A stretch of DNA of 64,000 nt from Azolla caroliniana. Taxonomy: Eukaryota; Plantae; Polypodiophyta. The stretch's first letter is position 1, and the number at the start of each line of letters is the position of its first letter. Location of the stretch: the NCBI GenBank assembly GCA_043228905.1, contig JBHGNT010000002.1:24366001-24430000 (forward strand). The letters are read 5' to 3'. Under the pieces are notes generated by a model. The model was not told the DNA's origin, searched no databases, and saw nothing but the letters and a program-made list of their open reading frames with translations. The translations under genes and the position numbers were made by a program. Below are positions 8,149-42,600 of this stretch, piece after piece.

Positions 8149-9761
8149 ATGGGGTTGGTGCAATCTAATACAGTGACTGCTGGCAGAGAAGATGGATGGC
8201 AAGCAATGCAACAATTACCACCTCAACAAGATGTATTATCGGTTAGGACAAAAACAATGCCACCTTCAACAAGGAATTTGCAACCATGGGACCATGGTAA
8301 TGCTGGGGCCATTATTCCATCCAGCTCTAGTAACCCACAACAAATGCTAGGGTCTTCTTACAACGATCCATCGATAGAAGTGTGGACAAACATCTATTTG
8401 GTGTGTTGTGCACATAGTAGTAGTAACAACATGCCAGAGCTCATTGGAGGTCGAATGCCATCTGAGTTGTTGACCTTTGAAGGGAAGCGCCAGGCCAAAG
8501 CAGTGGGCCACTATTTCCTTTATCGTGGTCTCCAATTTGATGCAATCTTCACCTCTCCTTTAGAACGATCCAAACAAACTGCATTTCATGTTTGCCAGGT
8601 ATACATACACATGTTATTCTTCTATTTTCCTCTTGCATTCAACCGCTTCAAGGCATGACATGCACACGCACGTGCACTCACACAATCACTTCTTGGTTGC
8701 ATGCATTTGTTTGAATGTCTAGCCGTGGAAACGTTTGTGGCACATTTATGTGTTCGCGCGCGCACACACTTACCATAATATCAACTTAGGAATATATATG
8801 CATTATTACACAAGTTGCAATCATGGGTCACAAACACATACAGGGTGGTCATACACAAACATTTGCAGCATCCAAATCATACAATCAATATAGATTTTGT
8901 TTATTCATATATGTTTTCTTACTCTAGAATCGATACATTTTCACCCCATTTTTCAAATCCGTTTGCTAGTCAATTTTGATGAAGAATTTTATTAATAGGA
9001 AATGTTACGAGGAAGAGTTACATAACTTGTTTCCTAAATGCTTTCTTAAATATGTTGTTGCATTGAAAACATTACATCATTCTTATTCGACATGGAATAA
9101 GTATTAGGAACTTAACATTGGACAAGAAAAGATTGAGTTTGGGGAAGCTCTAATGGAAATAAGCCAAGGATTATGGGAAAGGTTACACAAACATGAAGTA
9201 TACACAAGAGAGCATCTTGCCATGGTTTATAACTTGCATCAAGATTTTCATGCTCCCGGAGGTGAATCCCAACGTCAAGTTGAATTCCGAATGATGGACT
9301 TTATAAACAATGTGATCCTTAATAAATCTATACAAGCTGCTAACCTCCATATAGATTCACGAACATACCGTTACACTAAACAAATCCCCTCAACACCAAC
9401 ATTGCAAGTTCATCCTCTAGAGGACAATGTTAATAGTTGCCCTAACATGCTTGTTAGTAAAAGCAATAATGAGGCTATCAAACCAATTGAAAATAGACGA
9501 ATTCATGCGACATCACCATCTACAAACATTGTAGATGATGGAAGCATTGATAAAGTGTTTTCTCAACAAATGTCACCTTATAATGTGCTTATTATCTCTC
9601 ATGAGGTGGCTATAAAATGTCTTTTAAAGGGAATTTTAGGATCAAGTGCTCACATGACTAACCACATCTGTATTGACAATGCTTCTATTACCATGTTAAG
9701 CCATTCAACGCATGTTGGTTGGAGAGTCATGCATGTTAATAATATTTCACATCTTGTATGA
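8149..9761 (+). CDS. Histidine phosphatase / phosphoglycerate mutase family protein
   Basis: Exons 8149-8598 and 9108-9761 (GT-AG, phase 0). Motifs LTFEGKRQA, FTSPLERSKQTA, EISQGLWE, APGGES, IISH and IDNASIT. Confidence 0.88.
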
Positions 9762-12281
9762 AATTTGGGAATGGATAATATGTTTGGTCAAATGTAGCTA
9801 TGATGCCATATTTTCACCATCTTAAATCTTGGCATGTGTGACTATGGTAACATTTATATATCCTGTGTAAATTTTCTTATACCTTTGAAATTTGAATTCT
9901 CAAAATTTTCGCACCTTGTTGAAAACCTTTATGCACATTTTGAATGTTTTGAAGGTCATCAATCTAATGTGACCAATTATAATCACAAATCAGCTGAAAT
10001 AGTATGCCTTGAAAGAAACTTCTCAAAAGCTCACTAGATTGGAGTGTGTGGTTCATACTTTGAGCTTTTCTAGATTAAACTAAAGACGCCATAGGCCTTT
10101 CCGTGTATGAACCGCACAAATTTCTCTATTTTAACATTTCACCAAATTTATGTTCCAGAATTCAAAGGACTATTGTACTTAACCTCTTAAAACCCAAGAG
10201 GATATAAAATAAGAAAGGTGGGAACAATGAAACTTTGCAATAAAATATGCATTCCGTTGAAGGTGAAAAATCTCTTACAACAAAAGGGGATATGTGAGAA
10301 TAACGATCGACAAATGCAATCATATTTGACATCATTTATTTGTGTTTCAAACCCAATAATCCTATGCTTGACCGCCTTTAGTCGTGAAAACTTTATGGGA
10401 TAAAAACTACAAAAATAGTCCTTGACAAACTCGCAAGTTGTAGTTGCGTAAAAGTGCATAAGGTTAATGTCTCGCTTGGGAATCTTAATCATGGGACAAA
10501 CTAATGCAAAGTTTACCCTACTTCTATTTTTGAGATGTATAGAGATATGAATGCCAAGGTATGCAATTTATATGACTACCAACTTATGGGACAAACTTGG
10601 ATCAATACCAACAAAAAGGTGGTGTGGTTAGGGTTAATCTCGTGTGCCAATAAAATAAGCTTCATCCAAACTTTGAATGTCATATAGACTCCACAAGATT
10701 TAGACTAATCTCATCCAATACACCTCTTATACAATTAAGAAGATGTTGAAGAGAAAATGCACACATCACATAGTAACCAGTTTGTGTTGGGCTATAGGAA
10801 TTTGTAAACTATTCTTCAATAGTTACAATACTCTCTTCCCACTCGTAACGTTTAAAAGATGTTGAGCTGAAAATGTACTAACTAGATGAATGTCAATTCT
10901 CTCGTCCAATCATGGCTTTTCATATGAATTATTCAATGTGACATGAATCCATGTTATGAAAAATGGAAATAGATTATAGGAAGTCATTTGGGCCAATATG
11001 CTCAAAGTAATAGGTATAACGTTTTCGCGAGATTTGTCAAGACGACTCATGAAGTTTTTGCTAACAAGCTAGAAATGAGGCATTCTTGCAAAGAGGCCAA
11101 GAAAGGTCAACATATGAAAATGTCTTTTCAAAAAAATTGTCTTACAATCACCTTTTAGGCAAAAACAACTCATTAAAAAGCCAAGAAAGACAGAACACCT
11201 CACTCAACCAAGCTTGCAATGTTAGACTGGATCTATAGACGACACTCTAAGGAAGTTTCTTTTGGGTAGGGATATCCTAGTTTCAAAGGGCAAAGTTTAG
11301 GAAACAAACACATAAACACATAGATTTTAGGCCAAAACAAAGGAAATGAGTTTTAGAGAAAATTAATGAAAGGGGTGTTTTGATGAGGAACCAAACCATC
11401 CCTAAATTTCAAACGGGAACGAGGGTCACGAATGAACTACGTATACAAAATTAGATACAAATCCCCGATGGAGAAATCTTCATACGGAGGGGTTGCAACT
11501 CTTTTGGATTGCTATATTTTCTTAGGATGTCATTGACAATGGCATCATTGGAGTGGGGACCTTGTCGTCGAGGACATATGTACATAATAAGGTGGTGTGC
11601 CCAAAATAAGAAGAAGAACCAAACTCGACAAAACCCTTCTATTCCCTACCCTCCTCTAGACACCATGGCCTTTTGTGTTTGAGTGTGGGATGATGTCCAA
11701 AGAGCTAAAGTGTTGGTCCACATTTGGTCAAGTGGGATTTGTTGTTCCAATTCGAGAAAACCCAGATTTCGATGATAGGTAGCTCGGAAAGTGATAAGAC
11801 GGTGGCACGTTTTTCTCGGCCGATGATGATGATGATGATGATGAACGATGGCCAGCAATCACGTGGGCGTCCAAAAGGCAAGAAGAGAGGATGGCAAAAC
11901 TAACAAAACGAGGAGGTCACAAGAGACAGAGAGACTATAGGTAGGTAGGTAGGCAGGCAGGTGTGTGTGTGTGTGTACGCGAAGAAGGAAAGGTCAAGAA
12001 TTGGGATGGGCGGGGTGGGGAGATAAAACTGAATGGATTGGATGGAAGAAATGGGCGAGCGACGGTTGGGCTGATGGTCAGGATATGGAAGGTAAGGCGG
12101 CGCGGCCGCCCAAAGCCCCACAGCCCTCCAATTGGGAGGAGGAGGAGGAGGCGGAGGCGGAGGATCTTCCCCCCCTCCCCCTCTCCTCTTCCTCCTCCGC
12201 CACAGGCCCTGGACAAAGTAACAAACACACACTCACTGCCCATAGCCATTGCTGGGCCGGCCACTAGCTATAGCTACTAGT

Positions 12282-14261
12282 ATGTCAGAGCTGTATGGCA
12301 GCAACAGCAGGCCCAGCTCCCCCAAACCCCCTACCAAACGCGGAAGCTCCGCCGCCATTCGTAGCGGCGGCGGCGGCAGCGGCGGTAGTGATGCCCCCCG
12401 AGCCCTAGCCCAACACTCGGGACCTTCCGAATTGTCACCCGTGGATGCGGGAGACGATAGCGCTGGAGCCGACCCCGATCCCGATCCCGATCCCAACGTC
12501 GATCCCAATGTCGATCCCGAACTCGAACCCGAACCCGAACCCGACCCCGACCCCCGGCATACCCCGGAAGCCAGCACCCGGTATCGCGGCATCCGCCGTT
12601 ACGCCGCCGGCGACAACTACCGCACCACCTACGTCTGCTGCGTCACCAACCGTGACTCCCCCCACAACAACCGCCAGATATGGCTGGGCCGCTACTACGA
12701 GCCCCAGGCGGCCGCCATGGCCTTCGACGTCTTCTGCCTCTTCAACCACCGCGACGCGCACGTCAACTTCCCGGCGCTGCTGCCCTTGTACTCCCGCTTC
12801 GTCCCGCGCCGCTCCCTGGACGCCCACGGCGCCTTCCTCCCCATCTCCGCCGTCGACCTGGAGATGATCAAGCACATCGGCTTGGGCCTCATCCGTGCCT
12901 TCTGGCCCGACTCCTGCGCCGCCATCCACACGCGCCGCAACCGGAAGGCGCTGCCTATGCCCTCCGCCGCCCAGGCCGGCGTGACGGCGCAGCATGCCGC
13001 CGCCCTGCAGGCGGGCTACTATAACGAGATCGAGGATGGGGTGAGAGTGGCGGCTCTTGTGTTCATGAGCACGCAGCGTGCATTAGCGCAGCAGGCGGCG
13101 CAGCTCCTCGGGGCGGCGGCGGCTCCGCTACCTCCTCCACCACCTCCTCCGTCGGTGGCGGCGGCGTCTCCGGCTCCGGCTCGCCACCAATCCCATTCTT
13201 TCCCACCTGCATCTAATCTCATGATCCACACCGCGTCTGTCCCTGTCCTTCCACAGTCGCCGCTCCCTGCGCCTATACGAGCCAGAAGAAGATTCCTGTC
13301 AGAAGAAGAAGAAGAAGAAGAAGAAGACTACTCCCCCCCCCCGCCGCCGCCACCGCAAGCCACAAGGCTCTTAGGAGCTCATGCTGACCCCCAAGTCTCC
13401 CAAAGGCAAGGACCTCTCACCGCCATGGCTCTCAGTTTCCCACACCACTTCTATGGATCTTCATCCGCCTCTTCTTCTTCTTCTTCTTCAGCTCCGCCTC
13501 CTCCGCCTGCTGCTGCTGCCGCCGCCGCTCTCTCCAGACTCTTAGCCTCCCTTCCTCCTCCTCCCCCTCCCCATGAACCTACTTATTCACATGACATCCC
13601 TACCATGCATGCTTTCCTGGGTACATCTTCGGGCGGTGGTGCCGCCACTACAGATGCGGAATCCCCGATCCCGCCCCCGGCATTGCCTCCACTGTCTCCC
13701 ACTCAACGAAGGCCGATCCCACACGAGCTCCAACTCTTCGACATGCCCGACCGACAATCACCACATCCTCCACCCCCAAACTTAGCACCTCCGCCATATC
13801 CTCCTCCCCCGATAGTTAGTTCCTCGCCGTCAACTCGGACCCTGCCATCCTTAGAGCTGTCCCTAGGATCTTTTGTCCCATCGCCCTCTAGGGATCCAAT
13901 GTCTCCATTGGGTTATATACAACCACCACCTAACCAACAACAACTAGTACAACAACCATGGAACCAACGACAACAATGCCGGCAACCTCGATTGTTCACT
14001 AATGTCGGAAGTGCCCACCAAGCACTTCCGGAAGCTGCCGACATTCTGCCGAGAGCACAGCAAGCGCACGACCCTATCGCCTCGTCCATCTCGAATTCTT
14101 CGCCAACCTTAGGGGAGCTTCATGTGAGGATGGCCAATAGTAATTATAACTCCTCTTCTGCATGGAGGTCCTCCAGTAGTTTTCCACATTCAGCACATAC
14201 GCTAGATCCTCATCCTAACCCTCATGATTATGAGAATGAAAGCAAAGAAGAGAAAAGATGA
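12282..14261 (+). CDS. Intronless divergent AP2/ERF-domain protein with Pro-rich C-terminus and EAR-like motif
   Basis: 659-aa ORF from ATG 12282. YRGIRR...RQIWLGRY...AAAMAFD...AHVNFP (about 12580-12775) matches AP2 YRG/WLG/AxxYD/NFP. LELSL EAR-like motif near 13851. Strong GC bias at third codon positions. Confidence 0.8.
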   Translation: MSELYGSNSRPSSPKPPTKRGSSAAIRSGGGGSGGSDAPRALAQHSGPSELSPVDAGDDSAGADPDPDPDPNVDPNVDPELEPEPEPDPDPRHTPEASTRYRGIRRYAAGDNYRTTYVCCVTNRDSPHNNRQIWLGRYYEPQAAAMAFDVFCLFNHRDAHVNFPALLPLYSRFVPRRSLDAHGAFLPISAVDLEMIKHIGLGLIRAFWPDSCAAIHTRRNRKALPMPSAAQAGVTAQHAAALQAGYYNEIEDGVRVAALVFMSTQRALAQQAAQLLGAAAAPLPPPPPPPSVAAASPAPARHQSHSFPPASNLMIHTASVPVLPQSPLPAPIRARRRFLSEEEEEEEEDYSPPPPPPPQATRLLGAHADPQVSQRQGPLTAMALSFPHHFYGSSSASSSSSSSAPPPPPAAAAAAALSRLLASLPPPPPPHEPTYSHDIPTMHAFLGTSSGGGAATTDAESPIPPPALPPLSPTQRRPIPHELQLFDMPDRQSPHPPPPNLAPPPYPPPPIVSSSPSTRTLPSLELSLGSFVPSPSRDPMSPLGYIQPPPNQQQLVQQPWNQRQQCRQPRLFTNVGSAHQALPEAADILPRAQQAHDPIASSISNSSPTLGELHVRMANSNYNSSSAWRSSSSFPHSAHTLDPHPNPHDYENESKEEKR

Positions 14262-16547: not shown

Positions 16548-16832
16548 TCTTGGCAAAAGGTCGAGTTCTTCCACTTTGTATCTTAGTGTGAACACATCCA
16601 AATAGATAGGGCTTAGTATATAAGCTCTAACCTAACACTGTAACAACAACCTTCTTGTATCTTGAGTCCTGTAGAGAGAGAGAGTTACAAAATAACGAGA
16701 AACTCCATTGAAGCTCCAACTATGTGTCAATCTATTGTTTTCTTCCTTGTCGCATATCTGTGTTGTTTGTTGTGCACATAACCGACAGGTCCTCCCATAC
16801 TTCCGCATACATATCGAACCCTATATACGACA
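16548..16832 (+). repeat. Copia 5' LTR
   Basis: Near-identical to 28019-28312, ends in CA, followed by the PBS, and contains an AG tract. The 5' TG is mutated to TC. Confidence 0.85.
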
Positions 16833-16834
16833 AC

Positions 16835-19803: not shown

Positions 19804-20095
19804 TGTCATGAACAGTACTAAGACAGAGAAGGAATTAGTACTAAAAGAAGTATTAGTACTAAGAGAGGTGAAGAACTCTCGAGAGAAGGAAAGAGTGAGT
19901 GAGAGGGAGGGAGAGAGAGATCGAGAGAGAGAGAGAGTGATGATAAGAAAAAATATATATTATGTGAAGAGAATGTACAATAGTAGCTAGGAGGCTTAAG
20001 ACTGGCGTTGAACCGATTTGGTTCGAAATAATGCCTTGTGCCTCCTTTTATAGTGTTCTAACGAATATTCTTGAAGTTTCTAGAATGTTCCAGAG
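19804..20095 (-). repeat. Truncated 3' LTR of nested gypsy element 1
   Basis: Matches 22057 to about 22350, then fuses directly to protease sequence. The outer U3 end, PPT and pol are deleted. Confidence 0.88.
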
Positions 20096-21499
20096 GCAAT
20101 GGGACGACCATCGACGACTACTACAAAGGCAGGACATGGGAGTTTTCTGAGAGATATCCGATGAGCTTGGGCAAATTTCCTATCCATGAAGCAAGAATTA
20201 GCTCCGGAATCTAGAAGTGCTAAGACATGTACTGGAGGAGTACTTTTAGTACTAACTGTTACTTGGGCTACGAACACATTGCTAACTTGCTTAGAGGGAA
20301 TGGAACCACTAATGGGCTGCACAGATCTAGGGTTGTCCAACCAAACGACTCCTATTTTGGCTGGACTTAGTCGTTTAACTCTTCTTCTAACTGACTAAGG
20401 ACATCGAATTTGTTCGCTAGATTTGGGCTATTAGTACTATTAGGACTATCAGATATCCCTACTGAAATAGACTCGGGTTTAGTACAATCAGAACTAGCAA
20501 CTATTTGGTTTACCTGCATTCTTGGCCTATGGGGACAGTTTACCGCGATATGCCCTGGTCCACCGCAATAAAGACATAGTCGGTTTGCTCGGCGTCGTTG
20601 CTTTTCTTCTTCCGATAGCGGTCCACAACGACGTCTGGTGTCAATTTCCATCGGAGTTGGAGTACTTACTGGAGGCGCATTATATGACTCCCTCGGAAAA
20701 GGTTTCGCTACCACTGAGGTGTAGGTAGGCTCTGATCTTGCCCTCGGAATCTGGAATTGTCATTCCGAACGTCGTTCAAAGAGGCGGTTGTCGCATCTCA
20801 CCGCGCGACTAATTGCTTCTGTTAATGACTTTGGCTCTTCGGGGAAGGTCAAGAGTAAATCCTTGACATCGTTGCGTAAGCCATAACGGAATTGCTCCAT
20901 CAATGCATGATCATCCCAAGGGATATCGGCCGCGAGTAGGCAGAAATCTGCAGCGTATGCGGAAGCTGGACGATCACCTTGGCATAATCGCCGGATTTTG
21001 TTGATTGCATTCCTTATGTTGTCAATATCTCCAAAACAGGCCTTAAACTCACTTATAAATTCTTCAAAACTGTTAAGTAATGGAGAATCCTTTTCCAACA
21101 ATGGAGCAAACCATGGTAACGTTGAGCCACTAAGGAGAGTGCCTACTAGTCCCACTCGTGATTGTTGAGCGGCAAGCTCAACTGGAGCCGGATCGGCTGA
21201 ATAAGCCTGAGCCAGTAAGCGAGATGAATCGGTATGCCGGTGAGCAACCAAGCCGGTAAGCAGTAAGGACCGGTGAGCTGGGGAGCCGGTATGCCGGATC
21301 CAATCCGTAACCGGAAGCCTAGTATAGGTTAGACTACTAGGCAGTTATAGTCTCATAGTTAGTGTCAGATGCTTGTGTGAGCATTGAAGTACACCGTACT
21401 TCTAACAGTCCCATGTGGACTTGTATAAATAGCGCTGATGAGCGCGTTGTAGATACAGAGCACAGAGTATTCATATAATTTTGGAAAATAGTGTGTTTT

Positions 21500-21537
<38 letters not shown>

Positions 21538-21958
21538 ACGTACTCTCTCTCTCTCTCTCTCTTTGTGTATTGTTCTTTCTAACGCTTCCGCAAGCAATCT
21601 TTTACAGTGATGCATCGATGGGATATCGAGAAGGATGCATTTGTATCACTAAACGTACCTGATTCAAAAAACCCCTAAACTGTGATCGGGTCCCATCAAA
21701 TTTTGCAGGAAAACCGATCTTGGGTTCTTTGTGAATCCCTTGAGTGCTTGATCCTTGTTGTTGTAATGATATGATAGTCGCTTCGAGTTGTTGTACACGT
21801 AGCGTCAGCTCCCCATGTTGTTGTTGTTTTTCAATCGCTATTTGTTGAAGATCCCCCAACAAACGATGCTTTTCTTGTTCTAGTGCTACAAATTTCTCTT
21901 TTAAGCACTGGAGCTCCGAGAAAACAGATTGGTATTCCTGAGTGCTAACAGTTTCCAT
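20080..21958 (-). pseudogene. gag and partial protease of nested gypsy element 1
   Basis: ATG 21958; interrupted by a solo LTR and an in-frame TGA at 20760-20762; gag stop at 20367; protease in the -1 frame. Confidence 0.88.
21163..21606 (+). mobile_element. Solo LTR of another family inserted in the gypsy gag
   Basis: TG...CA ends; perfect TSD GTGAT (21158-21162 and 21607-21611); removal restores gag YPIDAS-RVGLVG. TATAAATA near 21425, CT tract and CCGG-rich repeats. Confidence 0.9.
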
Positions 21959-22056
21959 TTTACTAGGGAGGATAAGAGGATTAATAAGAAGATAAAAAGA
22001 AGAGGAGGAAAGGAAGATACAGAAGGAAGATCGACCAACAGAAAATCGGTTCAAAC

Positions 22057-22491
22057 TGTCAGGAACAGTACTAAGACAGAGAAGGAATTAGTACTAAAAG
22101 AAGTATTAGTACTAAGAGAGGTGAAGAACTCTCGAGAGAAGGAAAGAGTGAGTGAGAGGGAGGGGGAGAGAGAGAGAGAGAGAGAGAGAGAGTGATGATA
22201 AGAAAAGATATATATTATGTGAAGAGAATGTACAGTAGTAACTAGGAGGCTTAAGACTGGCGTTGAACTGATTTGGTTCGAAATAATGCCTTGTGCCTCC
22301 TTTTATAGTGTTCTAAGGAATACTCTTGAAGTTTCTAGAATGTTCCAGAGAAATCTGGAATATACATCAATTTTCTATAATAAAACATAAATGAAAATAA
22401 TATTCTACGTATTACAATGTATGGTCTAATGGTCAAGAGCTCGACCCATGTAGCATAAGGTCATGGGTTCGAGTCTTGCCATATCATGACA
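22057..22491 (-). repeat. 5' LTR of nested gypsy element 1
   Basis: TG...CA ends; matches 19804 to about 20095; TATA on the minus strand; AG tract. Confidence 0.9.
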
Positions 22492-23704
22492 TACACGGAG
22501 ATCTGGAAGAAGACATCTACATATCTCAATCGGCAGGCTTCACAATGACAAGGGAGGAAGGTCACCTCCTATGTCGACTGAAGAAAAGCCTTTATGGCTA
22601 AAAACAAGCGCCAAGGATGTGGTACCAGAAGTTTGACTCCTACATTCGACTACTCGGCTACAACCGGTTCGACTCCGACCCATGTCTATATACTCGGCAA
22701 TTGGTCGACGAGTCCTGGATCTATCTGATCCTATATGTTGACGACATGTTGATTGTAGGAAGCAATCAAGCCGAAATCGAAAAGCTAAAGCAGAGCCTTC
22801 ACAACAAGTTTGCGATGATGGAACTCGGACAAGCCCGACACATTCTGGGAATGAGGATTGAGCCAAATCGAACAACAAAGACTCTCTGGCTCTCCTGATC
22901 CGACTACATGCAAAAGTCATTGAGGTGCTTCAACATGGAGAATGTGAAGCCAACATCAACACCACTTCCGACGTTGATCTGACTATCGGACAAAGACTCT
23001 GCTTCGACGGATAAGGAGAGAGAGCTCAAAGGAAAGATACCCTACGCATCGTTCGTAGGAAGTATCATGTACGTGATGGTGGCGACCCAACCTGACCTTG
23101 CCTATGTCGTAGGGGTCGTAAGCTGCTACATGTCAAAACAAGACGGAAGCATTGGGAGGTCGTCAGGCATATCTTCAGGTACCTAAGAAGGACCAAAGAT
23201 ACACAAATGACTTTCAGATCAACAAACCCGACCGAAGTCCAAGGCTATACTGACTCTGACTATGCCGAAAATATGGACAATCGGAAGTCGACATCATGAT
23301 ATATTTTCATCTATGGCAGCGGGCCATATCATGGAGGTCGAAGCTGCAAGAGTGCATAACTCTGTCCACCACAAAGGCAGAGTACATAGCAGCATCAAAA
23401 TCCAGCAAAGGAAGCCATCTAGTTGCACTGACTGTCAACCGATTTCTCGATGACAAGTCAAATCAACCAACCAACACCGACCATTTACTACGACTCACAG
23501 AGCGCGATACACCTCATAAATAATCTTGTCTATCATGCGAAGACAAAACATATTGAGGTGCAGTATCATCACATCCGAGAGCTCGTAACAGAGAAGAAGC
23601 TCGAAGTTCGGAAGATCAACACTGAGGTAAACATCGTTGATTGCTTGACGAAGCCACTCCCAAATCAACGCTTTAGAGCACTAAGGAAAAAGATGGGACT
23701 ATGA
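22492..23704 (+). pseudogene. Copia RT (3' part) and RNase H, disrupted
   Basis: Motifs GDLEEDIY, WYQKFD, LYVDDML, AISWRSKLQ...STTKAEY and KHIEVQYH. Confidence 0.9.
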
Positions 23705-23858
23705 GAAGCGACCGAGTAGAAGAACGCCGAGTGTGGAGCAGAAGTTAAGTCAAAGACATGCCCGACCGGACGAGCCGACAAGGCAAAGTCAAAAGAATCG
23801 GAAGCACAAGAGCAAGCACAAGCTAACAACAGACGATCGACCCAAAGCCATAGCGCGA

Positions 23859-24607
23859 TGTCGGGGTAGTTGTGGTTTGTGCGGCGAAGTCGCAAGGACT
23901 AAGGTTAAAAGGAGTTGGCTATATATTTTATCAGGCTTGTGCAACAATGTTAGAAAGATTAAGGATAAGAAGAACAAGAGTTAGAAGTAATATGCAAGAG
24001 ACGGATGAGCAAAGATAAGAGATAAGAGACAATGTATGATTTAAGAAGTGAAAATGTATTATAAGAATAAGGTTTATATTAACAACACAATATTTTACCA
24101 AAGTTACAATGTCGATCACAAGATGAAACCCTTCTCTACCAACTCTTGATTTGAACCCTCAACTTCAACTCCGAGAGACAAAACATTTCCCCAAATGCAC
24201 TAGCTTCTTTGCTTGATTATATTATTTGATTTCTTACTTTCTCTTCTTGATCACCCTATTTTCCCTTGATTCATCCCTTAATTCCTTGCCTCTCTTTATA
24301 AGTTCTCTCATGCATATGATGATATGGGGGTGCATGGCATGCATGGCATGCATGTGATGCATGATCACCATTTGGCGCACATGCTTTACATGTGATGCAT
24401 GATAGCCATCATGCTCATCTAAGTTCTAATGTATGAAGATACACATGTCATAAGTATGATGATAAAAATATAAGTATAGAAAATAACTTGTCCTAATGGT
24501 ATATGCTTCGTCCTTGGTGTGTGAGGTTATGGGTTCAAGTCTCTCAAATGTTACTTAACACAATATTGAAGGTTGTTTTTATATCGTGAAGCAAATCCTT
24601 CACGACA
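23859..24607 (-). repeat. 3' LTR of gypsy element 2
   Basis: Direct repeat of 26716-27419, adjacent to the polypurine tract on the minus strand. Confidence 0.92.
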
Positions 24608-24645
24608 CCCACCCCCTCTGAACTTGCACATTGGATGTGCAAAGT

Positions 24646-26651
24646 TCATCCAAAATCTTGAAAAAACTCTTCATTCCCTTTCCGAATTGGATGTTTCCTG
24701 AAGCACTCTTTGTTTCTTTCATGGTTAGGCCTCACGGTTAAGAATTGTATTGTCTTCCTTCCATCCTGAGTCTTGATCCTCGTGAAAGCCAAACCATCAT
24801 CAATCACGTTTGTTTCCATCTTTATTACATTGATGTATGGTTGACCAAGGATGACAAAGTAGGTTGATCTATCATGCGCAAAGAAATTTTGATCCACCGA
24901 CACATCTCCCATTGTTACTTTCACACTGGGACATGCTCCCAACAGATCCTCCATAGTCTCTGTGGCAACTCTTATTTTCCACCCATGATCTTTGTCGATC
25001 TACCACCATCCTTGAGCATAAAATTCCGATGAAATCATGTTAATCTTTGATCCATGATTGATCAAAGCAATACATGGAATTTGTTGCTCCCTAATTTTTG
25101 CAGGTGCCTTTGTTGTTGCTTGAGCCCAATGGTCCCTTATATAATGACTCCTATCCCCTTCATGAATCCCAACATCATTTATCTTCTTTAAACTTGCACC
25201 ATTAATTGTGCCACAATCCAAATCTTGGAGTATTGTTGCACACCCTCCCGTAACTTCTTCCATCAAATGTTTTATATTTGTCACACCTTCTATGTCCGAA
25301 GCAAGCGTGAAAGTTGGGTATGTCTTCCATTTTACTTTATTAGCTTCTTTTGACTCAGGAGCATCCTTTTACATCTCTCTTCTCTCTTGTTCTTGTGTCT
25401 CATGCATTTTAGCTAGATTAGCCTCCTTGGCCCTCTTTCGCTTCTCTTCCATTAGTACATCTTGTGCATTCACTTGGGCAAATGCTGATAGTGAGTCGAC
25501 CGGATCATTCCATCTAGTGAAGTTTTGTATTTCATCACCCGCTCTTTTTAATTCATCCACTCGAACCTTCCCTTTTCTTTCATACTTCGTCACATCTTGC
25601 CAAAAGCTAGATCCACCATATGAATCTTCTACTGGTAACCCTAAGGTTGTCAAAGATTGTATTGCTTGAATTGTTTTTATCTCAACATCTTTCATTAGCT
25701 TTTTCATTCCACCTTGCCCGAAGTTGAGTAGGAGTGGTTGTCGTGTCTCGGTCGAGTGAATCTTACCATCTTGATAGTAGATTTTATCATGATTAAGAGC
25801 GTTCCTATGTTCTTGATAGTCTTTCTTATGATGGTTGATATTGTCACAGCACATACACCTTCGGATCATTCCACCTCCTTGCCTTGACGAAGTTGAGCTT
25901 TGTCCCGATTCTAGCTTCGTCACTTCGATCGACAAGTCTTTCATGCCTTTCACCAACTCACGCAAGAGTGAATCTTCTATTTTCTTCTCTCCCAAGTTGT
26001 TTCCCATTTTGTCTCCCTTCCTCTCAGGCAACTCCATAAACCATAACTTTCTTTTACAAAAATGGTTGCACACCCTTTTCACCTCCTCCTAGTCTTTGGT
26101 AAGTCCACTTGGACTATTCTGATCTTCCAGAAGCATTCCCAAGTCCATCCTATCTTTAATATTAGTGTCTTGTAGAAACAATATTATTTTATCTGGCATT
26201 ATTATATTTCTATCCCTAACATTTAATTGCTCAAATCTTTCTGAAAACTCTTTTAACACTTCCAAAACACTTAAATGTTTATTAGACTCTACCCAATCCT
26301 TGAAAGCTCGCCTTGTCATCCTTGACATATCGTTGAGGTTGTATTCATTCAGTAATGCTCTTTCGAAAGTTGCCCATGTCTGATGCTCCCTCTGTAGCTC
26401 TTGGATCCTTTGTTATAGCCCAATCGTAGCAGCTCCCTCTGTAGCCCAATCGTAGCGACTCGACTAAAACTATTAATTTTGGCAGCTTTGTCGACTCCAT
26501 GTTTAAGAATTTCTTCATTGTAAATCTTCAAATATCTTGTTAAATTTATACCTTCGAAGATTCCTACTCGTGCAAGAATATTGTCGACGGCTTTGTCAAT
26601 GCTTGCTATCATCCCTTGCTCCCGCATCATTCGTTCCATCATCGTATACAT
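24646..26651 (-). pseudogene. Fragmented gag-protease of gypsy element 2
   Basis: ORF pieces 26651-26349, 26328-26089, 26082-25369, 25284-25000 and 24954-24646 (VILGQPY protease tail). Confidence 0.82.
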
Positions 26652-26694
26652 AAATAAGCCTCATTTGCTCCTCCATTTTTCCTTGTCGTCGCCT

Positions 26695-26711
26695 TCACGT
26701 CGGGTTCACCA
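26695..26711 (-). promoter_or_regulatory. Primer-binding site (tRNA-Trp)
   Basis: TGGTGAACCCGACGTGA is complementary to the plant cytosolic tRNA-Trp 3' end (TCACGTCGGGTTCACCA, recalled). Confidence 0.8.
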
Positions 26712-26715
26712 AATT

Positions 26716-27419
26716 TGTCAGGGTAGTTGTGGTTTGTGCGGCGAAGTCGCAAGGACTAAGGTTAAAAGGAGTTGGCTATATATTTTATCAGGCTTGTGCA
26801 ACAATGTTAGAAAGATTAAGGATAAGAAGAACAAGAGTTAGAAGTAATATGCAAGAGACAAATGAGCAAAGATAAGAGATAAGAGACAATGTATGATTTA
26901 AGAAGTGAAAATGTATTATAAGAACAAGGTTTATATTAACAACACAATATTTTACCAAAGTTACAATGTCGATCACAAGATGAAACCCTTCTCTACCAAC
27001 TCTTGATTTGAACCCTCGACTTCAACTCCAAGAGACAAAACATTTCCCCAAATGCACTAGCTTCTTTGCTTGATAATATTATTTGATTTCTTACTTTCTC
27101 TTCTTGATCACCCTGTTTTCCCTTAATTCCTTGCCTCTCTTTATAGGTTCTCTCATGCATATGATGATATGGGGGTGCATGGCATGCATGAGATGCATGA
27201 GATGTATGAGATGCATGATCGTCATTTGGCGCAAGTTCTAATGTATGAAGATAAACATGTCATAAGTATGATGATAAAAATATAAGTATAGAAAATAACT
27301 TGTCCTAATGGTATATGCTTCGTCCTTGGCGTGTGAGGTTATGGGTTCAAGTCTCTCAAATGTTACTTAATACAATGTTGAAGTTTATTTTTATATCGTG
27401 AAGCAAATCCTTCACGACA
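26716..27419 (-). repeat. 5' LTR of gypsy element 2
   Basis: Direct repeat of 23859-24607, followed on the minus strand by the PBS. Confidence 0.92.
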
Positions 27420-28018
27420 TCGATACACTTCATAAATAATCTTGTCTATCATGCGAAGACAAAACATATTGAGGTGCGGTATCATCACATCCGGGAGCTC
27501 ATAACAAAGAAGAAGCTCGAAGTCCGGAAGATCAACATTGCGATAAACATCGTCGATTGCTTGACGAAGCCACTCCCAGATCAATGCTTTAGAGCCCTAA
27601 GGACAAAGATGGGACTACGACAAGCGACCAAGTAGAAGAACGCCGAGTGTGGAGCAGAAGTTAAGTCGAAGACCTGCCCGACCGGACGAGCCGACAAGGC
27701 AAAGTCAAAAGAATCGAAAGCACAAGAGCAAGCTTGAGCTGACAACAGACGATCGACCCAAAGCCAAGAGCCAAAATCGGACATGAGCCGATCCAAACAA
27801 AATGAGCCTACTCGATAAAAGATGTTGCGAACAAATCGATCCGACCGATTCAGATAACCAGTCGAATCAAGTTAGAGAACGACTTCACCTCTGCCTACTC
27901 GGCTAGATGCCAATTGATTCGTAACTATAACTGTAGATTAAAATTGTAATCTAGGTTTACGGGGGAGATAAACCCATACAATTGTAAGTATAAAGAGTAG
28001 TCCTTTTACATGGGAGTT

Positions 28019-28312
28019 TGTTGGTATAAGAAGGCCGACTCCTTCCACTTTGTATCTTAGTGTGAACATGTCCAAATAGTTAGGGCTTAATATATAAGCT
28101 CTAACCTAACACTGTAACAACAACCTTCTTGTATCTTGAGTCTTGTAGAGAGAGAGAGAGAGAGTTACAGAATAACGAGAAACTCCATTGAAGCTCCATT
28201 TGTGTGTCGATCTACTGTTTTCTTCCTTGTCGCATATATGTGTTGTTTGCTGTGCACATAACTGACAAGTCCTCACATACTTCTGCATACATATCAAACC
28301 CTATATACGACA
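28019..28312 (+). repeat. Copia 3' LTR
   Basis: TG...CA ends; matches the 5' LTR; preceded by purine-rich GGGAG. Confidence 0.88.
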
Positions 28313-28699
28313 ATGAGTTAGTCTCTCCGAACTCCTAAAGTGATGGAGATGCCTTGAAAACTTGACGAGATATCCTATCTAGTGATTAGCTATGTATCCT
28401 ATTAATAAAAACTATAGTTGGAAGAAGTTTTTCTACTAGCATGGGGGATAAAGTGAACCATGCTCTAATGATTTCATGTGGCACTAATAACATCGTGACA
28501 AATGGTCTCTCTAATTGTGACCACGTGAAATATGGTAGCCCTCGACCAAACTACTGTTGCATACATGAGGGAAGGGGTTACTAATGAGTTTAGGCTCTTA
28601 AAAGCATGCTTGGTGGCATTGTCTCTCTAAGAGTGAGAGGGACACATATCATCTTGTTAGTCTATCTCTTATGTTGTTTGTGTCATCGAAAATTTACCT

Positions 28700-32900: not shown

Positions 32901-35900
32901 CTCAACGCTCATAAGGATTAAGACCTTGTACTCAGATGATAGAGTAGACATTATTTAAGAGTGTGATATCAATTTGAAAGTGTATTCTTAATGTAGTTGC
33001 AAAGTGTCAGATTTTCTGTTTATCTTTCACTTGTTAGAGCATGAAGTATTCTCCAAGTATTTTGGTTTCATCCGTGAGTTGCTGGGCATAATGGAACTGC
33101 TTAACTCAACACAGATGCAACAAACTCACTAGCCAAAGTATACCAGTTTGCTATTCATATTCTTTGTGCAGTACAAATAAGCTTGAAAATGGAAGAATTA
33201 CCTTTCTGTTCTTGTTATACTTTGTTTAATTTCTACTTAATAATAGTACAAAATGTGAAGCACAATAATTGAAAGATATTAGGAGATTTATAACCGACCT
33301 TAGAAGATTTTTTTATCAGGTAAAGGAGTATCCAGGATATAATTTTATTGGTCTGATATTGGGACCTCGAGGAAATACACAGAAACATATGGAAGCGGTA
33401 TATTCTCTCTTTTGCATTATCATCCATTAGACTTATTTAAGAAATTTGTAGAGCTTGACAAGTACATATATACATGGCAGGAAACTGGTGCAAGGATTAC
33501 TATCCGAGGCAAGGGATCCATCAAAGAAGGAAAGGTATTTTCTGTAATTTATTTCTGGGAAATATTATAATTGGTGATAATTATGAAAAGTTCTTAGTTT
33601 GGATGTGAAAATGAAATGGACACTCTTTCTCATCTTAAAAGAGTGGAGAGTCCCAAATGTTCAAAGGTATGTCTTGTGCATAATCGATTGAGTTTCTTTT
33701 TCCCCTGAAACCTCTGTTTCGATGTGTACCAATTAACAAGGAAAAGGATATCATGTGTGTTTGAATCATTTCTTCAGAAATAAGAAATTTAATCGAAGAT
33801 ACTTCTACTTCATAAGTGCCTCTTGAGTCTTCACTTTATTACTGACACAGGCTATGGTCCTCAATGACTTTAGTTGGGAAATCTTAAATTCTGTAAATGT
33901 GCATCTCAAATTTACTGGGAAATCTTAATTACATAGATTTCCATGAGTTCTATGCAATTTTAGATCAACCAGCCTACACTGTTCTTATTTCTCCGAAAAA
34001 ACAGAGCTGACTAATATTTACATGTTTTTGTTTTATTTACTATCTGGTAAGATTTGAGTTTTTTCCCTAATGCTCTTGAAATATAGTGTAATGTCGTTCT
34101 TAGTTGGGATCCATGCAGCATTGTATAAGTAGTATCACTCTTTGACAATGCCTAGCTATTTACAATGACGTATTCATTAATGTATTATTTATCTGGTCAC
34201 TTCTGGTGTATGTTTCACTCTTTATTGCCTTAGCATATGCAAACGCTGGATAAATTGTGTATTTTTTGTGAATTGTTTTTAGACCAATAAATCTCTTTTC
34301 ATCAAAATTGCATGATTTCTTCAGATTTTTCATTCTTCATATTCAAATGGATTCACTTTTTTGCTTGGATTAAAGGGTGATAATTGTGTTTGCAATATAT
34401 GATTAGTTTATCTAAACATGTCTTAACCTTTTGGTGGCAGGCACCTGTTAAACATTCAAAAGAAAATGATTATTATGAAGATTTGCATGTACATATCTCA
34501 GGAGATACATGGGAAAAAATTGATGCAGCAATAACTCTCATCAAGCCACTTTTGACACCTGTTGATGTAAGTCTTATGGGTAATTTTCAGACGTTTTAAT
34601 GAACAACAAGGTGTACCAAAACTTTCAAGATTTTCTTATTTTCATTCTATGTGTTACTTCAAAAAGGAGTACAGGAATGTTCATATAATGAAGCAACTTC
34701 GAGAGCTTGCAGAAATCAATGGCAAGTGCTACATTTAGTTAATCTCACCTTTAGTTGTCCCACTATGACAAAAACGTTTCCCAGATGATAACCATTTTAT
34801 CATCGGTTTGAAATATTATTGATGCAGGAACCGTAAGAGATATTACAAGATTTTGTGGTATATGTGGAGAAATAGGACACAGAGACTGGCAATGTCCCAA
34901 GGACAAGCTTCAATCTTTTCAAGCAAAGGTAATTAATGATCATATTGGCATATTTTTTACATCACATGATGATATTCCAATGTTATTTTCAAAAGGAAAG
35001 AATCAAACAATGTTAGAACATAGTTCCAAGGTGAAGGTTCCCTTATCTATTAACCTTGAAAATACCAAGAACGCCTTCCTTTGCCTTATCATTTCACTTT
35101 GTTTCTGTGCTGTTCAAAGCTTCCTTAATAAGCCCATGGGATTATGCTAATGAAATAAGATTTAGCCATATTACACATACACTTGTTCTAAAGCTGTTTA
35201 TTATGAGAGAGAGAATCAATTGATTACAAACACTTAAAACCCTTAGTACTGATCAAAATTCAAGTTTGTAAAAATTTATAGATAATAAATAAACCTGCTA
35301 AATTCTATTAAGCATGGAAACAGGTGATGGTAATGATGTGTCAATAAATTTTGTTAATTTTGGAACATAAATGAATTAAAATATAGCAATTGATCCTTGT
35401 TTTATTATCCTCTTCAGGTTATCTGTCGGCTATGTGGTGATGCCAGCCACCCAACATTTGATTGCCCTATGAAAATTGGTGGAGAGGTTGGTATTCAAAT
35501 ATTTTTGCTTCTCTTAATGGGGTAGTGAAATGCCATAATGAGGGTAAAGGTATAATAAGGTGGTCAATTGCCATAATGAGCTAAAACCATAATAAGGTGT
35601 TCAATTTCCATAATGGTGTTAAAGCATACAAGAGTGGTTACTCTACCAAGTTAATGCATAATTAGATACTGCTCAATTACTAATAAAATAGGTATTGTCA
35701 AGAACTTTACCTTCTGACCACCATTTTCTGCCTCTATTTGTGGCAAATAAAGGCAAGTGCGGCTTATGGGGCAGGGCCCTAAACCACTCCCTATATAACC
35801 TTCAGTTGGAAACGTGTAGTTTAAATTTATTCAAGTATATGAGTTTAAATTTATTCAAGTATATGGTGTTGTCTCACTGCAGGGAAAACCAATAGACAGG

Positions 35901-37619
35901 GAATACTTGAATTTCCTCGAAGAGATAGGTATTGGACGAGTAAATTCAGAAACACCTTCAGCCTCGGCTGTGGCAGCCAAGGTGGGAGTTGATTCTACTA
36001 CAGCAGAATCAGCACATTCAGGCTCATCCTTCAATGCTTTCATGGCTAGACCAGCGGCTGAAGGTTCAGGTGGAGGTGGAAGCGGAGGGTTTCCTAGGCT
36101 TCCTTTCCCACCCCCGGGACCAGCTAGCATGCAGTTTTTCAATACTATTCTTCCCCGCCTTTTCCAAGGTATGTTTCGAGGGTCTTTTCCAGGACCAGTA
36201 GGTCTTGCGATGATGGCAAGGATGTTTGCTGCTTTTGGAGGAAGATTTCCTTTTCCTCCTCCACCTTTTGGTTTTAGACCTAATATGCGTCCCCCGCCGA
36301 TGCCATCAACTACTCTTCCTGAGGGTGTTTCTCCCCCCATACCAGTGGACAACACAACCAATGTCGGGCCCGGAGATAATAAGGCTGCTTCAGAGCAAGG
36401 TACTTTTAACACAAGTGATACACCAATGGAAGGCAGAAGCCTTCTCAATTCACCAAGTGTATCACATGGAACTACAACTGAAGCTCCTTTATTTTCATCC
36501 ACACCGTTCCCCTCGAGTATTTCTTCAACAGTTGCATCGGCAATTCCACCTTTTCACACCACGTCTGGGGTATCGTCCTTTTCATCATCATCGGTGGGGG
36601 GTATGAATCAATCAGCAATGTTCCCCTCATTTAATTCTACAGTCGCCACTGAGGTTCCATCCAGTTCACACTGCAGCATCCCAAATCCACCAATACCAGA
36701 GACCTCACCTCCGCCATGGCCTCCTTCAGAATCACCTATTTCAGCTCCGTCAAATCCATTGATACCACCATGGCCTCCAGCATCAATTACTCCCATTGGA
36801 CCATCTAGTACAGTATTTCCAGTTTTGCCGTCAATCCGACCAGTTTTGCCTTCGGTTAGGGTTCCAGTTCCAGTTCCAGTTCCATCACAAAGCCTTGGTT
36901 TCACACCACTAGGAGGCCCAGTACATGTTCCTCCATCAGTATCTGTGAGGCCAGTTATACCCTTGATCCGCCCCGCTTTACCAATGTATACTACGCTAAA
37001 TTCAATAGATACACAAGAAGGTACTAGATTCACACCGCAAATGGCACAAGAAGTTTCTAGATTCACACCTATGACACAAGAAGCTTCCAGATTCACACAT
37101 ATTGGTCATGAATCCTCTAGATATACACATATGGCAGAGGAAACTTCTAGATTCACACATATTCCAGAAGATGCTTCAAGATACAGATATATGGCAGAAG
37201 AAGGTTCTAGATTCAGACATATGGCAGACGAAGGTCATAGGTTTGCATCTGGGTCTGCATGGAATGTGAACATAGATAAATATCATGTGAACACGGACAG
37301 CTATGCCATGGGTGAAGACAGGTATCCAGTTAGTGAGGACAGGTATCCTGTGAGAGATGATGGGTATCTCGCCAACAGGGATGGTTATCACATCAACAGG
37401 GACAGTTATCATGCGAACCCAGGTGGTTATTCTCAACAATCTCGACCTTCATGGGTTCCATCTCACTATCCTCAACAACACCAATCTTTTACCTCAGGCT
37501 ATACACCATCTATTGCCTACCCTAGAACAACATTTACTCCCGTGGCCCCGCTACCAGGGGCGGGTCCTTCTTTTGTATTAGAACCTCATGGAAATCCTGC
37601 TCCCAAGTCTTATTATTAA
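29947..37619 (+). CDS. SF1/branchpoint-bridging-protein-like KH-QUA2 zinc-knuckle RNA-binding protein
   Basis: Exons 29947-30300, 31201-31329, 31610-31655, 31798-31880, 33320-33397, 33481-33534, 34441-34566, 34667-34721, 34828-34928, 35418-35486 and 35883-37619. Motifs [39 protein letters not shown] and two CX2CX4HX4C knuckles. Confidence 0.9.
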
Positions 37620-39693: not shown

Positions 39694-42600
39694 GCAAACA
39701 ACAATAAGTTGTAGATTCACATGCAAATGTTTCTTAAAATTCTTATATTTTAGCATTTTGGTGCAATGCCTTTTTACATCTTTCTAAGTGCTTGCATGGT
39801 CCATATGGCCTTTCTTGAAATCTTTATTTTTTTGAGCCAAGATTTGGGGGCTTCTGTCTATCTACTCGTCGTTGCATGAAGAACAAGATTTTATTGTTCA
39901 TGAATTTCATACTGGGCTTCTCTCCTTAGCTTCATGCACATTAATAACATTTTGTTGTTTTAGATTAGTTTATACCTTCAGCTTTTTAACATGTAGACCA
40001 TATATAAACCATTGGTGTGAATTTACTATTGTGTTGCTAAAACGAATTACGTTAGTCAAGCTCGGTAAATTCATACCTCAGAGTTGATGAATAAATACAT
40101 AATGTGATTGTCATGATGTTAAAGCAATCTTACGACGCTATATGAGTAAACACATAATAAGGCATTAAAAACTTGAACTTGTATGTCTGCGAACTATTCC
40201 ATTTTGACATTTTGTATTAAGCCGCTTATGAATATTCGTATTCATTGAGCAAGAGGATTCTTGTTTTTATTTTCCAAAAAAGAGGATTCTTGTTTTTAAA
40301 TCTACATAATTCATTGATTGGGATAATATTTTCGTTTAGTACAAAATCTAGATATTACAATGTATGTTGAAAATTTTAATTTGAAACAAGGAACTCCATA
40401 ACAATAAAAAGGAGAATGTATGGTGACTCACCACCATTTCTCGAACCCGTCCCCCCCTTATCGAGCTCATCTATGATCATGGCACTAATCGATGTCATTT
40501 AGTTTATCACAATAAATTAAGTAATGATGACAATATCTATTCATTATGAGATACTAGTTAATGATAATGAATATCCTATGGGTTGATGAATCTCCCAAAG
40601 AACATGTTGTCAATCTAATATTGGGTTTTACAATAACGAACACCTCAAACAAAAATATTATTTATTTTTTCAGTATACTACAGCTCCTTTAATGCATTAA
40701 AATAAAATTGGATGATAGTGATCTTTTCTATTTTTGGGTAATGTCCAATCAAATCCGAAAGAAACTAACTTTGACCTTTGATAACGTGCCCATTTAAATG
40801 TTGAGATCTTCATGTGCTCTTATCCATTATAATGCTATGGTGTGTTGGTTTTTTGTTCTTGAAGAAGTACAATGTATGAGGTAACGTAAGGTCCTAGTGC
40901 CCAACACTTGATCCATATGCAAGTAGGGGCGTATTGATGGTGTCAAAAAAGCACAATTTGGTTTGTGGCTTTTGAAGCCCAATCGGGGAGTGAAACAGAG
41001 CATGAAACTGTGAGCTCCCAAGTAGTGGGAGGAGAATCGAATCCCTGACCGCGTGCCTATTGAAGAATGAGTTGGCGACTTGTAGGCATTGGCCCGGTTA
41101 AGGGGGTACCCCGGGAGCCATAGTGAAAGCGAGTTGTATGTGTTTGCATTGTTGCTCAAGTGGCCCAAGGGTTGCATATGCTCATGAACCAAATGAAAAA
41201 CTATAGACAAACATATTCCCAAGTGTCGAGAGCATCAAGATCCTTTTAAAGTATCTCTAGTGTATCAAAAAGAGCAAAACATCATCCTCATGGAGCAATA
41301 TAGATATTATAATTTATTACTCCCATAAGAGTAATATATATTGAGAGCCGGTCTATGGTAAGGCCATATAGGCCTAAAAGAAGTATCCTTGCTTCACTCT
41401 AATGATGCTTGTATTCTCGTTGTAACATTCTCATATAAAACTTTTATATTGTTCATTGCATATAGGGTCATGTTAGACAAGTAACAACTAAGTGAGTTGA
41501 ATAATTTCTTTTTTTGTACTTTCGTATGTAATTCTTATTTTTCACCTGCTTTGAACTAAATTTATTTATGTATATTTGGTGAACTTATTCTTCAACAAAG
41601 TTGAGGGATTGTTTACCTTTCAAAGTGCATTTTCAATAGCAAACATTTTTTGTGAATTGTTCCACGTTGTGAAGGGCTTTCATGATGGGTACAACATCGT
41701 GCTTGTTTTTAACAAGACTTAAAACCACAAGCTGAGAAATTCAAAGTACAAATTGAACCACTAAATTATCATGTTTATGTTTTGAAGCTTTCCAAGTTCA
41801 ATAACTTTAGAAGTTATCATGATGTTTTTGAGATGACATAGAAGGAAGAAATACGCTTTTTGCATTGGTCTTTAGCATGCAATGTCTTGTTAAGGTTTTC
41901 CCAGGACTTGTTCAAGTGTGTTATAAAAAAATGTATATATCTTCCAATTATTAGTGCTAAAAAAATTTACATGTAGAACAAGACATCATCAAGGGCAAGA
42001 GGCATTTCCCAAAAATAATGTGAAAGCTAACCCATATATCAACCTGGAAGTTCAATTTTGGTTGAAATTATATGAAGACTTATACTATTTACATGGTTTC
42101 CACTTCAGGAACCGATGCACGTTTGTATGCCTTCTACACGTTTAGGAACCAATGGGCCATACATTACCCCATATATTTTCTCATACACATGCTCAACTGT
42201 AGGATTAGGCCTACTCCAATTGTATGGTTGTATCATATGATGTGCACGTGCAATCCAAAGGCATCTTCAAAAGCAAACAATTATCAATATGGAGATTCCA
42301 TCTTGACATAACCTTACTTTGACTTTTGTTCATTTATAGGCAAGGTTAAAGTAGACACAAAACAATATATTAAAAACATGGTTGAAAGGTGAATATAAAA
42401 ACAATGGGCACTCAAAGGTAAGGTGAAACTACACAATAGCTTTGATGTAGAGATATTATTTGATCCCTTGCTATCGAGACAAACACTCTTCAATGTAGGG
42501 AAGACGATGCTTCCACAATTGTGTTCAATGTAATGGGCTTTTGTAGGTAGGGTGGAGACTAATTAGACATATGACTCGAGGATGCATCAAATTTCCCTAC

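Follow-up and report, generated by a model that had tools for sequence, protein, structure and literature searches.

Pol III promoters in long terminal repeats (LTRs) have been described for short non-coding elements, in which they are used as the element's own promoter. The closest described group is Helenus (TRIMp3; Kojima 2024, PMC10886601), which, as characterized in the passages of that paper devoted to it, carries tRNA-like A and B boxes in the LTR, a feature shared with the retrotransposon named here element A. According to the same passages, Helenus members are short non-coding TRIMs of 311-1263 bp, whereas the relatives of element A encode gag-pol with a chromodomain and a second gypsy-type element of the same locus, element 2, encodes gag-protease. 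The Helenus cassette is in sense orientation, near the LTR 3' end in the supplement entries; that of element A is antisense and located at the U3 end, its mirror image. The Helenus boxes were proposed to be the element's own promoter, whereas the relatives of element A keep a Pol II TATA box. A tRNA-complementary PBS serves as a criterion for Helenus; element A is self-priming instead, and element 2 has a TGG-type PBS. Since three defining features of Helenus (short non-coding structure, sense orientation and tRNA PBS) are absent from it, element A is not a Helenus member. The survey followed only those Repbase LTRs with part of a tRNA that were shorter than 1 kb, and longer carriers were noted in passing (PMC10886601).

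The Cassandra and Ajax TRIMs also contain a Pol III internal promoter in their LTRs, and Cassandra occurs in land plants including ferns (PMC10886601). As presented there, these are non-autonomous elements with 5S-derived promoters (A, IE and C boxes) for their own transcription, unlike the tRNA-type cassette of element A. With the Tcn1 clade of the Tf1-Sushi group the element A lineage shares self-priming, the PR-RT-RH-IN-chromodomain order and, likely, a non-seed-plant host (PMC6317226, PMC2864245); Tcn1 has, however, been reported from mosses and Selaginella, not from ferns, and the passages on it in these two papers mention no tRNA-like LTR cassette. A U3 complementary to the T and D arms of a tRNA, as in element A, has been described for Ty3 (PMC5371799) and for HIV-1 U3-R. 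Both match their own primer tRNA, whereas the element A lineage has no tRNA primer and retains only the universal box positions at gene spacing. Finally, tDNA barriers and ETC sites act through TFIIIC-bound boxes, the mode proposed below for element A, but they are fixed host loci and not mobile (PMC2040200, PMC12409998); ETC sites, as outlined in PMC12409998, consist of an extended B box without TFIIIB, whereas the element A cassette keeps half of an A box too.

The literature search, thin in its coverage of subscription journals and Repbase notes, did not turn up any coding LTR element described as having an antisense A/B pair in its U3, although Kojima's Repbase remark may cover such cases; the relevant passages of PMC13570524, PMC2864245 and PMC3286476 give no account of an antisense U3 arrangement. 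Judged from sequence, the antisense U3 cassette in coding LTR elements represents a variant of Pol III-box-bearing LTRs, lineage-wide and selected, for which we infer the function discussed below.

Element A and its antisense cassette

The window, i.e. the whole 64-kb stretch of DNA analysed, contains a retrotransposon nest in which a copia element hosts two gypsy-type elements, both on the minus strand. The copia host is delimited by LTRs at about 16557-16833 and about 28031-28313 and possesses a gag of the PF14223 family. Element A (19804..22491, minus strand), nested in it, is a deleted copy of a self-priming chromovirus, of which gag, with Pfam gag matches, and part of the protease are left. 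Its 5' LTR (22057..22491, minus strand; 435 bp, U3 end at 22491) is defined by TG..CA ends, a TSD (TACAC at 19799-803 and 22492-96), the alignment to the other LTR and full-length matches in the loci described in the next section. The 3' LTR remnant (19804..20095, minus strand) differs from it by 9 substitutions over 292 aligned positions and is devoid of the U3 end and the cassette, so that the deletion of the other LTR over this region, mentioned in the preliminary description, is borne out. This deletion joins the remnant to the protease region and took out the U3 end, PPT, RT and integrase. The TATA box of the Pol II promoter is located at 22301..22307, the self-primer (the predicted RNA 5' end, complementary to the PBS) at 22263..22274 and the self-priming PBS, which is not tRNA-complementary, at 22043..22056, all on the minus strand. 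A solo LTR of a third family (21163..21606, no strand assigned; TSD GTGAT) lies inside the element A gag and carries no cassette according to the PWM scan given below. The 64-kb window contains no tRNA gene. Its host reading frames include a long PPR protein (48815-51355, minus strand), a histidine-phosphatase exon (9108-9761, plus strand) and two proline-rich frames (12246-14261 and 35820-37619, both plus strand), one without a Pfam match and the other with a 30-bp tandem repeat. For one host exon the sole named homologue comes from Adiantum (50%), a weak indication that the host is probably a fern.

The cassette resembles in its layout a tRNA-type (type 2) Pol III promoter, whose B box consensus is GGTTCRANYC. 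Three elements have been identified, all on the plus strand and thus antisense to element A; (i) the A box at 22422..22432 (TGGTCTAATGG), an exact match to TRGYNNARNGG; (ii) the motif AGGTC at 22458..22462, similar to the tRNA variable loop (positions 44-48); (iii) the B box at 22466..22475 (GGTTCGAGTC), separated from the preceding A box by 33 nt and from the LTR end at 22491 by 16 nt. The positions of the TATA box and self-primer place the cassette at the outer U3 end in antisense orientation. The location of both boxes, their distance from the terminus and their polarity had thus been read correctly from the letters; the cassette likewise runs straight into the LTR end, with no SINE tail or TSD of its own, as had been stated. 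It may have originated from a SINE head. ARAGORN and Rfam made no tRNA call at the cassette. A paired-box PWM, trained on 13 of the scored LTRs and therefore partly circular, gave 6 matches in the window (mean 0.0 in 30 shuffles) and 48 in the 357 kb of loci (0-1 in each of 10 shuffles), with no match in the copia LTRs and the nested solo LTR of the window. Two weaker tRNA-like box pairs on the minus strand (about 55950-56010 and 41715-41770) lie outside the mapped LTR elements, the first adjoining a 76-bp tandem repeat.

The class of the lineage is visible in the relatives L007 and L011, which are about 5.6 kb long, have open gag and pol frames with the order PR-RT-RH-IN-chromodomain, and carry the chromodomain PF00385 in pol, at the integrase C-terminus, a region deleted in the window copy. 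The distance from TATA to self-primer is 32-33 nt in 11 of the 13 LTRs for which a PBS was found (39 nt in L065, 28 nt in L078), and primer and PBS covary over 10 LTR types (permutation p=0.0001). A PBS that is not tRNA-like, its complement about 32 nt after TATA and this covariation together indicate self-priming, a property marking the Tcn1 clade among plant chromoviruses in the classification of Neumann 2019 (PMC6317226). Judged by self-priming and domain order, the element A lineage is probably a self-priming Tcn1/Tf1-like chromovirus; the best PDB match is Ty3 Gag-Pol. In L018, L011 and L029, which belong to the subclade with a second box pair inside pol (see below), the PBS and self-primer have changed to a B-box-like word (perfect except for G52 in L018), for which no role was found. 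The shared word TYGAACC hinted that the self-primer might pair with the complement of the B box in U3; this was rejected, the own motif being no better than others (p=0.999).

Distribution and conservation of the cassette

The preliminary description saw the cassette in one LTR and proposed a search for it in other family copies and in both LTRs; it is present there, in a high-copy family and with 3' LTRs included. Contigs of four DNA runs from four organisms were mapped on 22200-22540, and the summed contig depth of the B-box bin, taken as a measure of presence and not of copy number, was about that of the rest of U3 in all four runs, with a sharp drop outside the LTR. Behind 22491 the loose contig ends (50-98 contigs per run) run into a polypurine tract, which indicates that 3' LTRs carry the cassette too.

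A search with a gag alignment (45/83 homologues) confirmed 384 stretches, and the best 80 of these led to 78 metagenome loci. Such collapsed assembly contigs, which stem for the most part from a single group of related assemblies, do not represent independent genomic copies. LTR starts were defined by a PPT plus TG, blind to the boxes, giving 26 in the main clade (gag identity to the query 63-100%) and 8 in distant elements (49-54%). Not counted were L017 (9 nt of LTR), the purine-rich non-LTR matches L015:8083 and L069:2145, a start occurring in duplicate (L009, L078) and any locus in which no start could be defined by a PPT. The PWM revealed paired boxes in 25 of the 26 main-clade starts, L046 being the miss, and an antisense B box with at most one mismatch to GGTTCRANYC is present in 24 (0 mismatches in 17, 1 in 7, 2 in 2). 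These 26 starts fall into 9 types at 70% identity, between which the first 130 nt are near-random (59% alike vs 52% for shuffles). Among the distant starts the pair was found in two (L071, L073) and not in L059, L065, L072, L075, L076 and L078; in L059 and L065 a B-like word stands alone at 24 nt from the end, an ambiguous situation that was scored negative. The six distant starts without a pair show that the cassette is dispensable for the wider group. In all LTR matches of the lineage it is antisense. The expected enrichment of A and B boxes across LTR families thus holds as a strong position and strand bias in related families, but it is not general, as the copia LTRs and the solo LTR have no match.

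On a gag tree of 68 rows (28 unlabelled, midpoint root) the cassette label needs at least 2 changes, forced by the starred branches, which could be either two gains or one gain followed by losses. Scans of viral contigs gave nothing relevant, the single match, L080, having no A box at the right spacing and looking like chance. The profile search of genome contigs gave one gag locus, L079, in which no LTR start was found.

The comparison of LTR types separates what is kept from what drifts. The commonest U3 6-mers in 10 types, searched without anchors, are the complements of AATGGT and GTTCGA (8/10 each), whereas the best GC-containing 6-mer in 300 shuffles reached at most 6/10 types; an unanchored alignment of the 10 types lines up both boxes. 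The A-B gap is 32-33 nt in 17/17 types (searched range 30-35), while the distance from B box to LTR end drifts between 11 and 54 nt and that from cassette to TATA between 107 and 201 nt. The kept positions are T8, A14-R15-T-G18-G19, the TWAG-like bases that follow, AGGT 44-47, GTTCRA 53-58 and Y60-C61; the spacer sequence, positions 49-51 and 59 and the flanks are free, and changes fall on the degenerate box positions R57, N59 and Y60. Of the A box, the 3' half ARTGG is kept across types and the 5' half is loose, with T10 instead of TRG in 7/13. The variable-loop motif, none of whose positions was used as an anchor, is kept at A44 in 15/17 LTR types, G45 in 15/17, G46 in 16/17 and T47 in 17/17. 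C56 of the B box is changed to T in L025, L039, L067 and L046. Within family A the identity is 39/40 in the A-box 3' half and 138/144 from AGGTC to the B box, against 668/743 in the upstream U3 and 175/198 in the spacer.

Selection on a Pol III/TFIIIC-type box pair in the element A lineage, acting on its sequence, spacing, strand and position and without a common RNA structure, is well supported by these sequence comparisons. The same data bear on the explanation by a passenger, in which a tRNA or SINE head was captured once in an ancestral LTR and has been copied along without function. According to PMC10886601, "not a few" of the LTRs in Repbase include a piece of a tRNA, the stems of the cassette have decayed and some copies have broken B boxes, as a passenger might. 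However, the boxes are the best-kept words of a U3 that is otherwise close to saturation in spacer and flanks, the gap has retained its length where neighbouring distances drift, and the polarity is the same in three placements; with the unanchored 6-mer test largely refuting it, a functionless passenger is hardly credible.

The decay of the tRNA fold is seen in the cloverleaf pairing of 17 types (acceptor 48/119, D 40/68, anticodon 32/85 and T 39/68 cells), which is near the permutation means. Nominal signals at the tRNA register (acceptor p=0.023, D-stem Watson-Crick p=0.026), two among 56 tests, may be an ancestral residue, and no convincing cloverleaf covariation was found across the 17 LTR types. 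A long hairpin over the cassette, overlooked in the preliminary description (22418..22491, no strand assigned; z -4.85, 0/200 shuffles) is specific to family A, in which z ranges from -3.6 to -5.0, against -1.8 to +1.4 in 12 other types and element 2. The family A spacer is now complementary to the B-box side, so that in the genomic RNA the PPT is immediately followed by a long hairpin. Two candidates were rejected on these grounds; a functional tRNA or kept cloverleaf, by the stem pairing near permutation and the hairpin confined to family A, and a hairpin MITE inserted in one copy, by the family-wide cassette and the absence of the hairpin outside family A.

Element 2 and the pair inside pol

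Element 2 (23859..27419, minus strand; 3.5 kb) contains a gag-protease frame without RT, belongs to the DUF4100 gag family and has a TGG-type tRNA PBS, which we take to be that of tRNA-Trp. Both LTRs carry an antisense cassette on the plus strand. The left one (24489..24541) has the A box at 24489-99 and the B box at 24532-41, with a gap of 32 nt and 66 nt from the LTR end; in the right one (27301..27353) the boxes are at 27301-11 and 27344-53. The contig depth over the cassette bin (6543 and 9559) is within the range of the other LTR bins of this element.

In the preliminary description both elements were said to share the same kind of cassette at the same LTR position and orientation, together with a common core, yet to differ in priming. 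The difference in priming stands, self-priming in element A against a TGG-type PBS in element 2. A similar antisense pair in U3 is also common to both, but at 66 nt and not 16 nt from the end. The 17-mer core occurs three times in the window at up to 2 mismatches, in element A and both LTRs of element 2. Its exact form is common only to family A and element 2, but it is largely a generic tRNA variable-loop/T-arm consensus; two more types are 1 mismatch off and 14/17 lineage types lie within 3 mismatches. Outside the anchors the two cassettes match at 19/51 positions, inside the range of 14-25 for unrelated types. Given this value and the near-matching 17-mer in other types, an exchange between family A and element 2, one of the two origins suggested, finds no support, and a separate capture by element 2 would be the simpler reading. 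The other suggested origin, repeated acquisition, is supported by the at least 2 changes on the gag tree and by element 2 and the copy inside pol as separate placements. A comparison with tRNA-Pro was the best of 20 (25/51, the next 24/51; spacer p=0.044, uncorrected) and gives a weak hint that the element 2 cassette might derive from it.

Several further features of element 2 were recorded. A second B-box word is present in both LTRs (24148-24157 and 27005-27014, minus strand), in sense orientation to the element and without a good A box. A duplicated stretch of copia sequence, 346 bp long and 93% identical, lies on either side of the element (23505-23850 and 27421-27766), and its 4-bp flanks differ (GCGA and TCGA). 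Two insertions into separate copia copies may have recombined to give element 2. Each of the 4-bp flanks agrees with NCGN, the target preference of Phygy according to PMC6317226.

The second placement within the element A lineage is an antisense A/B pair with a gap of 31 nt, situated in frame in the protease-RT linker (about 2920-3010 of L011, minus strand). Its carriers form one subclade (L011, L018, L029, L030, L032, L042, L044 and L047), and it is absent from the other loci having a protease-RT linker. In L011 this linker exceeds that of L007 by about 20 residues. GTTCGA is kept in four sequence types of this pair while the encoded residues around it differ.

Possible functions of the cassette

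As selection maintains the boxes in chromoviruses that encode proteins and have a normal TATA box nearby, and does so in the reverse orientation, they must do something other than serve as the element's promoter. The favoured reading, to which we give an even chance and which makes the anti-silencing or boundary role of the preliminary description plausible, is that the cassette is a DNA module which binds TFIIIC and TFIIIB and protects the Pol II promoter from silencing by the flanking DNA. According to PMC12409998, TFIIIC binds tightly to the B box and weakly to the A box and places TFIIIB upstream. tDNA and TFIIIC sites are described as chromatin barriers in yeasts (PMC2040200, PMC12409998), and dispersed Arabidopsis tDNAs as lying in open, less methylated chromatin (PMC7544208). 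The tRNA-derived A/B pair, kept antisense at the outer U3 end, would by analogy work as DNA. Host TFIIIC would bind the boxes and load TFIIIB on the AT-rich U3 between the boxes and TATA, where the 45 nt upstream of the cassette are 73-87% AT in 13 types. TFIIIB would then sit 100-200 nt from the Pol II TATA box, between promoter and host flank, and the bound module could hold the promoter open against silencing from that flank. The antisense polarity would direct any Pol III transcription away from the TATA box, and a module pointing outward would place its TFIIIB site inside the LTR, so that it travels with every copy.

Some observations are not explained by the insulating module. Yeast TFIIIC is reported to tolerate gaps of 32-93 bp (PMC12409998), which would account for the lower bound of the spacing but not for the absence of longer gaps, and the TFIIIC model gives no reason for the conservation of AGGT 44-47, which lies beyond the B box as usually defined. 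In fission yeast, as reported in PMC2040200, a tDNA acts as a barrier whichever way it points, so that the strict antisense polarity requires the additional assumption on polarity made above. In Arabidopsis, methylation silences tDNAs that lie in clusters even though their boxes are intact (PMC7544208), hence boxes alone are no guarantee of open chromatin. The loose A-box 5' half, the changed C56 in L025, L039, L067 and L046, the near silence of the family in poly(A) RNA (see below) and the six distant starts lacking the pair likewise speak against this reading.

A working Pol III promoter, whose antisense RNA tunes the element's own expression or replication, is in our view rather unlikely; the transcript, with the same reservation, would either start in the 3' LTR, cross the PPT and enter the region of integrase and chromodomain, or leave the element from the 5' LTR. 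In favour of this explanation, both boxes, and not B alone, are retained at the spacing of a tRNA, the sequence upstream is rich in AT, and the polarity is always antisense, the copy inside pol included. It is, however, opposed by the lack of a conserved terminator (a T run of at least 4 inside the LTR after the B box in only 5/14 types), by the scarcity of CAA within the 20 nt upstream (3/13 types) and by the lack of a conserved RNA fold. Two poly(A) RNA runs of a related organism gave 37 and 25 reads over the whole 2.4-kb stretch (about 12.6 million records each), which marks the family as nearly silent; these data are very thin here and cannot test Pol III output. In these thin libraries there was no read-start hotspot, and the cassette-bin reads were mostly in the element-sense mate direction (5.15 vs 0.94 and 2.17 vs 0).

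The pair might also act in the genomic RNA, where the U3 complement of the D-loop and variable/T-loop would anneal host tRNAs or their fragments and aid packaging, strand transfer or plus-strand priming, which we judge quite unlikely. An HIV-1 U3-R sequence similar to the tRNA-Lys3 gene reportedly promotes minus-strand transfer; this precedent and the conservation of AGGT 44-47 outside the B box speak for such annealing. The position just behind the PPT and the strict antisense orientation also resemble Ty3, for which a bipartite PBS is described, with the T and D arms of the primer tRNA pairing with U3 (PMC5371799). The lineage is self-primed, however, so no primer tRNA needs a second site. 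Furthermore, positions 49-51 and 59-60 vary freely, the spacer is free in sequence but fixed in length, and the pairing of a self-primer is no stronger with the U3 motif of its own type than with those of other types (p=0.999).

A role in integration, with TFIIIC near the cDNA end tethering the pre-integration complex or the LTR mimicking a tRNA gene as a landing pad, seems very unlikely. The B box does lie 11-54 nt from the att end, but the best-supported joints and loose ends listed do not cluster into a hotspot of insertion upstream of the A box, element A itself is nested in the copia RT region of a window without tRNA genes, and the copy inside pol is far from any end.

Extended to all placements, the insulator reading becomes more tentative. 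In at least 2 unrelated gypsy lineages of one plant group, protein-coding elements may have taken up a backward tRNA promoter more than once and turned it into a portable TFIIIC/TFIIIB insulator shielding the Pol II promoter, a possibility we rate somewhat below even. Its placements, put forward with similar reserve, would be the U3 end in two lineages and an in-frame position inside pol in one subclade. If true, this would be a cis-acting anti-silencing strategy built from the host Pol III machinery. If the boxes are barriers, they would make it possible to test directly how elements with a chromodomain remain expressible where their surroundings are silenced, and whether TFIIIC insulates in plants. 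Through a family of high copy number, many TFIIIC sites would also be scattered over the genome, together with tRNA-like false positives.

Genes of tRNA type were also encountered on the contigs of the lineage. Host tRNA-Asp (L040, 128-201) and tRNA-Pro (L058, 3892-3963) genes or pseudogenes are present, too few for a statement on targeting. Positions 1-10000 of L042 form a tandem array with a period of about 400 bp, composed of degenerate intron-containing tRNA genes, presumably Tyr-like, and interrupted by a chromovirus.
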